This document shows, piece by piece, positions 4,576 through 62,204 of a stretch of DNA of 64,000 nt (position 1 is its first letter; every line of letters begins with the position of its first letter). Made by a program: the position numbers and the translations under genes. The notes beneath the pieces were generated by a model that did not search any database, was not told where the DNA came from, and saw only the letters and a list, made by a program, of their open reading frames with translations. This DNA comes from Rickettsiales bacterium (GTDB taxonomy: Bacteria; Pseudomonadota; Alphaproteobacteria; Rs-D84), in the NCBI GenBank assembly GCA_031262525.1, contig JAISHM010000009.1, positions 6,583-70,582 on the forward strand, read 5' to 3'.

Positions 4576-5616
4576 ATGAATGGAATTATAATTTTTCTGG
4601 GGATTTTGCTGATACTGGTCGTGGGTAAGTCTGTATTTATACCACTGATTGTTGCCGCATTTTTGTGGTATTTAACAAATTCTATATCCGCGTATTATCG
4701 CCGTGTTATGCCATTCGGTAAAAAGTTTTGCGACGCGTCGGGAACAATGTGTCTTATATTTGATTGGACGGCGTTCAGCGCTGCGATTGCGACATTATTG
4801 GGTTTGTTGTATATTTTTGTGGTCCAGATAAAGCCTATGTTTCGCGCAATCAGTGCCCAATTGCCGACGATACAAAATAACCTGTTTTCATTATCAACAT
4901 ATATTTCGGATACATTAAATATAAATATAAATCCGTCTGTGCTGCCTGACTTGGCGGGGTTAGCGGCGAATGTAGGAATGTCAATTGGTGGTGCTGTATT
5001 ATCATTTGGAATGATTTTAATTTATCTGTTGTTTATGTTTATTGAGCAAAGCAGTTTCAGAAATAAAATCGCGGCGATATTCCCAGACACAAAAAAGTTT
5101 CGGAAATGGTCATATATATTAAATTCAATAAATACAAATATGAAAAAATATCTGTTTATGAAAACATCGGTCAGCGTGGCAACTGCTCTGCTGTCTTATT
5201 TTTGGTTAAAATATCTGGGGCTGGAATTTGCGGGTGTTTGGGCATTTGTGGTGTTTATTATGAATTATATTCCGACATTTGGCGCGATAATATCAACGGC
5301 GATGCCGATATTATATGCGGTTGCGACAATCCCAGGGTTGCAAATGCCGATTCTGATTTTAATTGGGCTGGTTTTAATTCAGATATTGCTGTCCAATATC
5401 ATAGAGCCTAAATTGACCGGCGACACATTGAATCTAAGTACCTTGGCGATTTTGATAAATTTGGTATTTTGGGGAATGATATGGGGCGCGGCAGGAATGT
5501 TTTTCAGCGTGCCGTTATTGGTTGCGACATTTGTAATTACGGCGCAATTTGATAGAACGCGATGGATTGCGGTCTTGCTATCTGCGGACGGAAAAATCCC
5601 GGATAAGGAAGAATAA
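4576..5616 (+). CDS. AI-2E (PerM/UPF0118)-like transporter family membrane protein
   Basis: A 346 aa ORF with about eight TM helices and topology typical of AI-2E transporters. The assignment rests on overall pattern, not a specific motif. Confidence 0.4.
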   Translation: MNGIIIFLGILLILVVGKSVFIPLIVAAFLWYLTNSISAYYRRVMPFGKKFCDASGTMCLIFDWTAFSAAIATLLGLLYIFVVQIKPMFRAISAQLPTIQNNLFSLSTYISDTLNININPSVLPDLAGLAANVGMSIGGAVLSFGMILIYLLFMFIEQSSFRNKIAAIFPDTKKFRKWSYILNSINTNMKKYLFMKTSVSVATALLSYFWLKYLGLEFAGVWAFVVFIMNYIPTFGAIISTAMPILYAVATIPGLQMPILILIGLVLIQILLSNIIEPKLTGDTLNLSTLAILINLVFWGMIWGAAGMFFSVPLLVATFVITAQFDRTRWIAVLLSADGKIPDKEE

Positions 5617-60332: not shown

Positions 60333-60412
60333 AATGATATTATAATAAAAAAAGCAATCTCAACGCAAGGCTAAATTTTGTTTCATTATAAAAATTCCAT
60401 TAAAATAAAAAT

Positions 60413-60468
60413 GGGGGCGCGCACCTTTTGCCCCCATTCGCCCCGACATCGCATTGCGATGGTCGGGG
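60413..60468 (-). terminator. Tandem GC-rich hairpins downstream of gene 60482..61270; the distal one is a rho-independent terminator
   Basis: On the minus strand, CCCCGACCATCGCAATGCGATGTCGGGG comes first, then GGGGGCAAAAGGTGCGCGCCCCC followed by ATTTTTATTTT. Confidence 0.5.
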
Positions 60469-60481
60469 GGGCTCGTTTTTG

Positions 60482-61270
60482 TTATTTCGCGTTCTCGTTC
60501 GACGACAACTCTTTGATACATTGCTCGGCAAGCCCGCGCACGCGCACCCAAAGATCGTAGCCGAGGGACGCGTTAAGGGTGGCGAGGCTCAGGCAATTCA
60601 AAGAGCAACAGGACGCGCCGTCCCAATTGCCCAGAGATAGCCAAAACTGCCCATCAGGAATCAAACGTTCTACTTTGTTTGTTTTTATATTATACATATA
60701 AAACATTGCAATGCCGTATTTTGATTTTTTACCAATTTTTGGTTTCTTTACTATTTTCGCATATCCTGTTTTATTTATATCCGCAGGTGCGGAAATCACA
60801 CCACACATACGCCAATCAGTATCTTTCATATAGTTATTATTTATATTTTTTTGTAATTGTGATACCCAATTTTCTGTAATCCAATCAGTATAAATTGTAT
60901 TGTTATTATCTCCATAGCCAGTTTTAAATTTATAACTATTACTGTTCTTACTGAACGTTGGTTGGTTGTCCCCGTCCAACCAAAACACACCAACAAAGTT
61001 TTCATCTTTGTTGATGATTTTATCCATCTGTTCACGCACACATTCAATAGAATTGTTTGTGTTATATGATTGTTGTGTTGTTTTATTATTTTTATCGTTT
61101 CCCAGGCGGATATTATACAATGCGGTTTTTTCTGCGTATGAAAATCCATTAATTTTATTGACATCGCGACGAATGTTACGACGGGATTCCTGGCGTGCAT
61201 TAAATTCCGCAATTACTTCATTCAAAGTTTTATCTTTTGGCAAAATATCAAACAATCTTTTACTAAACAT
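60482..61270 (-). CDS. N/K-rich hypothetical protein whose C-terminal coding end is duplicated, inverted, about 850 bp away
   Basis: A 262 aa ORF with no signal peptide. The last roughly 55 codons are GC-rich relative to the rest of the gene and lie inside inverted-repeat copy A. Confidence 0.45.
   Translation of the reverse strand: MFSKRLFDILPKDKTLNEVIAEFNARQESRRNIRRDVNKINGFSYAEKTALYNIRLGNDKNNKTTQQSYNTNNSIECVREQMDKIINKDENFVGVFWLDGDNQPTFSKNSNSYKFKTGYGDNNNTIYTDWITENWVSQLQKNINNNYMKDTDWRMCGVISAPADINKTGYAKIVKKPKIGKKSKYGIAMFYMYNIKTNKVERLIPDGQFWLSLGNWDGASCCSLNCLSLATLNASLGYDLWVRVRGLAEQCIKELSSNENAK
60525..60650. repeat. Inverted repeat copy A, inside the 3' end of CDS 60482..61270
   Basis: It matches the reverse complement of 61507..61635 at about 85 percent identity. 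The blocks CGGCAAGCCCGCGCACGCGCACCCAAAG and GGCAATTCAAAGAGCAAC.GGACGCGC.GTCCCAATTG.CCAGAGATAGCCAAAACTGC are conserved. Confidence 0.8.
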
Positions 61271-61506
61271 TTTGTTCCTCTTTTTTTAGGTTATATAATT
61301 TATATTACACACCCCAATACAATTTGTCAAGACATTATTTGGATTGTTTTAAGATTTTATAAAATATGGTTATTTATACCATATTTTATAATTTTAACTT
61401 ATTTATTTATTTTGCGAATCACGGATTATTTATATCGCGAATCGGAAAAATTATTCATATTCTTGTGCCTGTGAAAGAAATTTCATGGGTGTTGTATTTA
61501 ATACAA

Positions 61507-61635
61507 GCAGTTTTGGCTATCTCTGGACAATTGGGACAGCGCGTCCAGTTGCTCTTTGAATTGCCTGAACAACGCCACGAATAACGCGTCCAACGACAAC
61601 AACGAACTTTGGGTGCGCGTGCGCGGGCTTGCCGA
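61507..61635. repeat. Inverted repeat copy B: a silent, start-less alternative C-terminal cassette
   Basis: The plus strand reads in-frame as QFWLSLDNWDSASSCSLNCLNNATNNASNDNNELWVRVRGLADT* after an upstream TAA. The current gene end reads QFWLSLGNWDGASCCSLNCLSLATLNASLGYDLWVRVRGLAEQ.... Confidence 0.75.
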
Positions 61636-61810
61636 TACTTGAACATCAAAGTTTTGCCGACCCGCGGGACACCAATTAAAGGGTCTTTTGATACAAGGCT
61701 GAATACAACACCATGTCGTAAATACGGCAAAATACAATACGCGGGGATTGGTGCCGGTGCGGTAATTTTTACCGCACCCGCCCAACAATAAACATCAAAA
61801 GGCTTATAAA

Positions 61811-62104
61811 ATGACCGATATTCATTCTTTTTCTGACTTCGCAGAACCGCGGTTTGGTCTGTCGGGGGTAAAACGCAGAATTTCCGATATTTTGGATACT
61901 CCATTGGTCGCATTGGCATACAAAATTATCCCATCAAAAAAGAACTCTGGTGAATGCCTGCAACTACAATTTACAATAAACAATGAAAAATTCATTGTTT
62001 TCACCGGCAGCGCGGTTTTAATAGACCAATGCAAAACATACACCGAAAAATTTCCTTTTAATGCAAAAATACAAAAAATTGACCGATATTTCAGTTTTGT
62101 TTGA
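61811..62104 (+). CDS. Hypothetical protein, 97 aa
   Basis: An ATG ORF ending at palindromic repeat copy 3. No domain. Confidence 0.3.
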   Translation: MTDIHSFSDFAEPRFGLSGVKRRISDILDTPLVALAYKIIPSKKNSGECLQLQFTINNEKFIVFTGSAVLIDQCKTYTEKFPFNAKIQKIDRYFSFV

Positions 62105-62141
62105 TGTTCTCACTACATACACAAGCGGGTCAAATAAAAAA

Positions 62142-62169
62142 AAACTTGTCCTTTATAAAAGACAAGTTT
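62142..62169. repeat. Palindromic repeat copy 3 (AAACTTGTCCTTTATAAAAGACAAGTTT, 1 mismatch), acting as a bidirectional terminator
   Basis: It lies between a convergent plus-strand ORF and secF. It is followed by the same ATTTCAYTAA flank as copy 1. Confidence 0.65.
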
Positions 62170-62204
62170 ATTTCATTAACCAATATCACAAGCAACCAAC
62201 ACCA

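Follow-up and report, generated by a model that had tools for sequence, protein, structure and literature searches.

Adenine-specific differences between inverted repeats mark a probable diversity-generating retroelement cassette without a detectable reverse transcriptase in a Rickettsiales bacterium

The stretch of DNA analyzed here (the window) comprises 64,000 nucleotides of contig JAISHM010000009.1, from a metagenome-assembled genome (MAG) of a Rickettsiales bacterium (GCA_031262525.1). Toward its end lies a gene for a hypothetical protein of 262 aa, LBL75_02050 (60482..61270, minus strand), in which a segment near the C-terminal coding end recurs, in inverted orientation, on the far side of an AT-rich divergent intergenic region (61271..61506). 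The copy inside the gene (copy A, 60525-60650, minus strand) encodes residues ~208-249, while the second copy (copy B, 61507-61635, plus strand) is untranslated and rich in AAC and AAT. Directly 3' of copy B we found a conserved structured RNA of 117 nt (61632..61748, plus strand), followed by an intact gene for a 97-aa protein of a conserved family, LBL75_02060 (61811..62104, plus strand). The initial annotation of this stretch interpreted the repeat pair as a switch of C-terminal coding ends operated by DNA inversion or gene conversion. Our analysis indicates that the locus is very probably a cassette of a diversity-generating retroelement (DGR), in which copy B is the template repeat (TR) and copy A the variable repeat (VR) of the target gene LBL75_02050.

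The inverted repeat was recovered both by repeat search and by alignment. The search returned two pairs of arms, 60557-60650/61507-61600 (94 nt, 86% identity) and 60525-60558/61602-61635 (34 nt, 97% identity), which a gapped alignment merges into a single repeat (126/129 nt) that differs between the copies by 14 substitutions and a single gap of 3 nt. The two copies are ~87-89% identical, somewhat closer than the 85% first estimated, and have identical blocks of 20 nt and 29 nt in common. The repeat had been described as the last ~129 bp of the coding sequence, but the repeat ends 43 nt before the target stop codon, so that the last 14 target codons (EQCIKELSSNENAK) lie outside it. Each of its conserved end blocks occurs exactly twice in the window and was absent from 100 shuffles. 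As originally noted, copy B shares the codon frame of copy A, has no start codon, and has an in-frame TAA just ahead of it (61499-61501); a tblastn search with the target protein as query also matched copy B (72% over 43 aa).

The differences between the two copies run in one direction. Read in the target sense, 13 of the 14 substitutions fall at adenines of copy B, where the coding copy carries G, C, or T. Thymines of copy B and adenines of the coding copy are not involved in any substitution; given 22% A in copy B, the binomial probability of this bias is P = 4e-8. Such adenine-specific TR-to-VR differences are the defining signature of DGRs. Many of the TR codons are AAC, AAT, GAC, or AGC, an A-to-N change yields a stop in none of them, and the theoretical repertoire of the TR is ~1e16 peptides. 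Compared with the TR translation, the VR is altered at G214, G218, C221, S228, L229, L232, L236, G237, Y238, and D239 and has one codon deleted. These data also bear on the possibility that copy B is an inert, decayed, and functionless duplication of the 3' end of the gene. The lack of a reverse transcriptase (RT) gene nearby, the one non-adenine substitution, and the one indel would suit such a duplication, but random decay would hit all bases, and the cassette arrangement is kept in at least eight loci of different organisms. The base bias effectively refutes this explanation, to which we attach next to no probability.

The same bias recurs in all seven related loci examined, with substitutions at TR adenines numbering 15/16 in L002, 10/12 in L004, 10/10 in L011, 14/17 in L014, 16/16 in L017, 9/9 in L018, and 13/14 in L019. 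Contigs that encode remote homologs of the target share this anatomy: in L002/L003 and L004/L005, an inverted repeat of 119-122 nt lies upstream of the target. The cassette is complete in L011/L012 (Alphaproteobacteria MAG WRHR01000001.1), where the target occupies one strand and a divergent TR, a 99-aa open reading frame (ORF), and a 338-aa RVT_1 RT occupy the other. The RT of this relative carries the DGR hallmark motif [I/L/V]GxxxSQ as IGNLCSQ and the catalytic YxDD motif as YSDD. Among solved structures its best match is 8ub7_A, a 328-aa reverse transcriptase (E = 3e-43), with a group II intron RT at 8e-15; we take 8ub7 to be the RT of the Bordetella phage DGR. A DGR RT was found in the homologous cassettes L011/L015, L017, L018, L030, L039, and L044, and the clade displays three gene orders: TR-accessory-RT (L011, L017, L018, and L030), an RT downstream of the target, with TR and accessory gene as a divergent pair (L039, plus L014, whose RT is truncated), and target-TR-RT-accessory with direct repeats (L044 and L045, two IMG/VR contigs). 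Among 21 loci retrieved from metagenome contigs by a motif scan, only 6 have the accessory gene; we treated the remaining ones as probable chance matches. Scans of genome contigs and metagenome contigs with the target protein found nothing.

The related loci and the base bias together weigh on the mechanism favored by the initial annotation, in which recombination between the inverted copies flips a ~850-bp segment carrying the promoter and the N-terminal coding part onto an alternative C-terminal cassette. That the copies are inverted, in frame, and share long identical blocks is what such a switch would require, but one-way substitutions confined to adenines are not expected from it. Furthermore, relatives with the same layout carry an RT and not an invertase, and the orientation of Logan contig L001 is that of the window. 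Consistent with the original observation that no recombinase is visible, neither tblastn of the window with a serine recombinase and a tyrosine integrase, both taken from related loci, nor a Pfam search of the ORFs at 45-64 kb detected one; the Pfam search returned housekeeping families or none. Because the repeats of L044 and L045 are direct, inversion is not how the family works, and for this locus we consider it very improbable. Since the copies are inverted, in frame, and share identical blocks, occasional RecA-mediated inversion is physically possible and would create an in-frame fusion ending in ...LADT and a stop; such rare homologous TR/VR inversion would be a by-product of the inverted layout.

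A second alternative is silent-cassette gene conversion of the kind found at Anaplasma msp2/p44 and Neisseria pilS, with copy B as the promoterless donor for an expression site. Rickettsiales are known for silent-cassette systems, and a start-less, in-frame copy with conserved flanks around a divergent core resembles such a donor. However, donor copying is expected to be faithful, whereas here the expressed copy differs exactly at donor adenines (A to G, C, or T), and what lies beyond the donor is a conserved structured RNA and then an accessory gene linked to RTs. There is also only one cassette: the further silent cassettes envisaged earlier do not occur in the window, where the conserved blocks are found only in the two copies, and the target paralog of the same genome (P0003) lacks matching blocks. 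We therefore judge this explanation highly unlikely. What stands of the proposed C-terminal switch is a system that varies the C-terminal coding end of the target and uses copy B as an untranslated, in-frame donor; the directional bias at adenines speaks against both inversion and gene conversion as the means.

Other components of the locus are in keeping with the DGR reading. The VR ends in a GC-rich block (60525-60558, minus strand) that matches the 3' terminus of the TR at 97% identity and is reminiscent of the element for initiation of mutagenic homing (IMH); TR/VR homology ceases immediately past this 34-nt block. GC-rich hairpins had been reported after both copies, and we found them at both. 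Together, the shared 3' block and the hairpins would correspond to features expected of a DGR, namely a putative IMH-like element, a candidate post-VR hairpin, and a structured RNA past the TR. On the VR side, a GC-rich hairpin without a T-run (60441..60468, minus strand) stands directly past the target stop codon and is a candidate for the post-VR hairpin or cruciform of known DGRs. It is followed by a hairpin with a T-run that forms the intrinsic terminator of the target (60410..60438, minus strand). The same order, with the hairpin lacking a T-run first and the terminator second, occurs in L002, L014, and L017, although such hairpins are present in some relatives only.

On the TR side, the RNA at 61632-61748 has a long-range helix (ACCCGG...CCGGG), two or three hairpins, two of them variable, and the invariant single-stranded motifs GATACTTG, CAAGGCTGGATA, and GAAAAYACRATAAC. 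We compared 12 sequences over 21 base pairs (the window, L002, L004, L011, L014, L016-L019, L026, L030, and L039) and found 91.7% of cells paired, as against 77% in shuffles, and changes on both sides in 44 cells, as against 15 in shuffles; slid controls were at most 59% paired. The window RNA retains all invariant nucleotides and contributes a compensatory change of its own, from G-C to C-G, in the closing helix. No Rfam family matched this RNA at either gathering or E-value thresholds. By its position, the RNA appears analogous to the spacer (Sp) RNA needed by DGR RTs, and it is a candidate new RNA family of this DGR clade. A further strong hairpin lies between the conserved RNA and the accessory gene (61750..61785, plus strand). 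On the opposite strand, an ORF of 154 aa (61455-61919, minus strand) overlaps the TR and the structured RNA in antisense and reaches into the first part of the accessory gene. It is called as a gene in the Logan contig, has no Pfam match, and is probably the annotated LBL75_02055; it looks spurious.

The protein encoded by the accessory gene belongs to a family of 97-99 aa that shares 53-65% identity and 34 invariant residues across eight loci, and all 34 are kept in the window. No match was found for it in Pfam, NCBIfam, or PHROGs. The family is also present on the two IMG/VR (predicted viral) contigs (L044 4995-5300 and L045 3518-3823, 44-49% identity) and hence extends beyond Rickettsiales-like MAGs. 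A low-confidence structural model built from a three-sequence alignment (predicted local distance difference test score, pLDDT, 57) is beta-rich and tentatively OB-fold-like; so modeled, the protein may be an OB-fold nucleic-acid binder. Genes resembling avd (PF05635/bAvd) do occur, at L013 8731-9078 and L022 3490-3840; each lies 1-2.5 kb upstream of a paralog from the target family that is without a TR or RT in its vicinity, which may be coincidence. Neither the window nor the DGR loci gave a tblastn match to these two Avd-like proteins.

In a working element of this kind, the TR would be transcribed together with the structured RNA that lies 3' of it. A DGR RT, aided by the 97-aa accessory protein, would then make cDNA from the TR RNA with misincorporation opposite template adenines, and this cDNA would replace the VR at 60525-60650, guided by the shared GC-rich 3' block. 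The outcome would be the recoding of ~17 target codons. The adenine-specific TR/VR differences, the conservation of the RNA and of the accessory gene, and the RT of homologous cassettes are observed directly in sequences, whereas we infer that the TR is transcribed, that cDNA is made, that homing takes place, and that the accessory protein assists.

Several observations count against this reading. The foremost is that no RT is detectable in the 64-kb window. Moreover, among the best 120 matches, the named NCBI homologs of the RT include none in the MDR0967xxx range of this MAG, a weak check given that MAGs are incomplete. Two differences between the copies depart from pure adenine substitution: a synonymous G to C change at 61579, which adjoins two mutated adenines, and the sole TR/VR indel, which amounts to one codon, an AAC lost in the VR from an AAC-AAC run. 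The locus also lacks Avd, the 97-aa protein having no bAvd/PF05635 match, and the target domain is not recognizable as a C-type lectin or immunoglobulin (Ig) domain. Finally, two comparisons that we count toward a relic belong here: non-adenine differences number 0/35 in loci with an intact RT and 5/45 in those that have no RT or a truncated one (Fisher P ~0.05-0.06), and Logan contig L001, one independent assembly of the locus, has an identical VR. The two irregular differences are nonetheless within the known range, since at least one non-adenine difference occurs in 23% of DGRs and indels in 7%, 74% of these indels adjoin AAC, and 3-nt indels are on record (Wu et al. 2018, PMC5758913).

The missing RT was pursued by several routes. 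A six-frame regular-expression search of the window found no open frame containing a YxDD-type motif, and the L011 RT, used as tblastn query against the window, returned nothing at E = 1e-4 or E = 10. In the relatives, the RT is located either directly past the accessory gene or, on the downstream side of the target, at a distance of ~0.7 kb. Housekeeping genes occupy both positions in the window, secF-secD the first and an S41 peptidase/PAP2 cluster the second. Homology to the RT-bearing loci ceases exactly at the stop codon of the window accessory gene, and no remnant of an RT 5' end was found after it. Contig searches with SecF (two start choices) or with the 97-aa ORF, aimed at extending past the window, returned nothing, and the sole other contig containing the target, L001 from the source run, ends inside the accessory gene.

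Loss of the RT or damage to it recurs in this DGR clade. In L014 the RT is truncated at residue 154. L019 (1532-1945, equal to L031) has decayed by an internal deletion that fuses codon ~33 of the accessory gene to RT residues ~230-335, and its 13/14 adenine bias persists. Neither L016 nor L026 carries an RT past the accessory gene, on contigs too short to exclude the other RT position. In these two loci a tRNA comes after the accessory gene, tRNA-Arg in L016 and tRNA-Leu in L026 (2043-2127). In the 1124-2727 stretch of L016, a 530-aa large serine recombinase abuts the tRNA-Arg, which suggests that a mobile element integrated at this tRNA. L014 contains a 59-nt palindromic repeat of repetitive extragenic palindromic (REP)-like type at 107-165, 2843-2901, and 5329-5387, including the end of the truncated RT and a position directly past the accessory gene; a rearrangement mediated by this repeat may be what disrupted the cassette.

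Because the window has no RT, its VR is either frozen or rewritten by an RT encoded elsewhere. We see an even chance that the VR is frozen and the cassette a recent relic; the contrast in non-adenine differences between the two classes of loci is suggestive in this direction, and the unchanged VR of the second assembly was counted on the same side. That the VR is still being rewritten, by an RT elsewhere in the genome or on an unbinned contig, is a serious possibility, if somewhat short of even. In its favor, the design of the TR, the invariant positions of the RNA, and the invariant residues of the accessory protein are all intact, and AAC-slippage indels like the one seen here are a product of retrohoming itself. 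The position of the RT is also flexible in the clade, with its three gene orders, and cassettes without a visible RT after the accessory gene recur (the window, L014, L016, and L026). A more specific version is that the locus is a complete but RT-less "satellite" DGR module, composed of the target, TR, RNA, and a new OB-fold-like accessory gene, which functions through an RT elsewhere and diversifies a helix-displayed, non-lectin scaffold not recognized before, in a Rickettsiales-like bacterium. We regard this as less likely than not.

The closest reference point is the prototype DGR of Bordetella phage BPP-1 (mtd-avd-TR-brt). Like the window locus, it combines adenine-specific differences, a VR near the 3' end of the target, a stop-proof, AAC-rich TR, and structured RNA 3' of the TR with a GC-rich IMH-like shared 3' block and a post-VR hairpin, for both of which the window has candidates; the RT of the window's homologous cassettes is, as described above, closest to the 328-aa 8ub7. 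The window differs in that its TR lies inverted with respect to the target, with divergent transcription, its accessory gene (97 aa, beta-rich model) belongs to the TR-RT interval whereas Avd of BPP-1 is a helical bundle encoded upstream of the TR, its target has no recognizable C-type lectin fold, and it contains no RT gene. Its setting, moreover, is chromosomal, among housekeeping genes, and not that of a phage. Architectures A and C-E in the survey of Wu et al. 2018 (PMC5758913) offer further parallels, including avd-less DGRs, alternative small genes in the accessory role (HRDC, MSL, and CH1), and components recorded on opposite strands. In length, the 97-aa family is distinct from CH1 (acidic, 160-169 aa) and from MSL (112-283 aa), and every DGR in that survey has an RT, by construction.

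The systems to which the locus was originally likened share parts of its layout. In the tail-fiber segments of phage Mu (Gin) and P1 (Cin) and in the R64 shufflon, inverted repeats bracket a segment and alternative C-terminal ends are in frame, but these systems depend on short crossover sites and a dedicated site-specific recombinase, and the differences among their ends are not confined to adenines; neither recombinase nor crossover sites were seen here. Anaplasma msp2/p44, Neisseria pilE/pilS, and Borrelia vlsE likewise have promoterless donors, conserved flanks, and a single expression site, but they have many donors and copy them faithfully, in contrast to the one donor, adenine-mutagenized transfer, and RT-linked components of the window. 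We assign the element to a DGR clade of Alphaproteobacteria that has been little described. What sets this cassette apart is the accessory protein, the scaffold of the target, the divergent orientation of the TR, and the absence of an RT from the window.

With this assignment, a speculative inversion switch gives way to a well-supported mechanism, targeted hypermutation by a DGR, and a small DGR clade is identified in MAGs of Rickettsiales and Alphaproteobacteria. Its non-Avd accessory protein of 97-99 aa, its covarying RNA without an Rfam counterpart, and variable residues predicted to lie on a helix face and not in a C-type lectin fold merit the notice of specialists, and the working principles of DGRs are left unchanged. 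The RT-less state raises the question of whether an RT acting in trans can drive such cassettes or whether they represent stages in the decay of DGRs in reduced genomes.

The target protein itself has few known relatives. It found no match in Pfam, PHROGs, or NCBIfam, and a word-indexed protein search returned only the target itself, annotated as from a Rickettsiales bacterium, while a full HMMER scan detected 10 remote homologs. An AlphaFold2 model (pLDDT 78.9) shows N-terminal helices followed by an alpha/beta domain, with the variable region near the C-terminus. In this model, the recoded residues borne by a helix are predicted to share one face of that alpha-helix, and the others fall in the end of a flanking strand and in a loop.

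Paralogs of the target occur in its own genome and in another. The same MAG encodes LBL75_04115 (P0003; L010 261-1010) on another contig, with ~37% identity to the target, a quite different C-terminal region, and no repeat, accessory gene, or RT nearby. In GCA_031555055.1, two paralogs (L009 10001-10804 and L013 10001-10861) have near-identical variable regions, differing in 2 residues, and different N-termini. One of the two is located where its contig ends. A single TR that serves two targets may account for the pair, or else a recent duplication.

The divergent intergenic region between the target and the TR contains a promoter-like site for the target at 61330-61302 (minus strand, 10/12 matches), and the promoter of the TR is presumed to lie in the same region (61271-61506). 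Also within it is a perfect 14-nt palindrome with a 7-nt spacer (61357-61370/61378-61391; TTATAAAATATGGT/ACCATATTTTATAA), which may be an operator. At the other end of the locus, a palindromic hairpin flanked by A/T runs (62138..62173) separates the accessory gene from the convergent secF.

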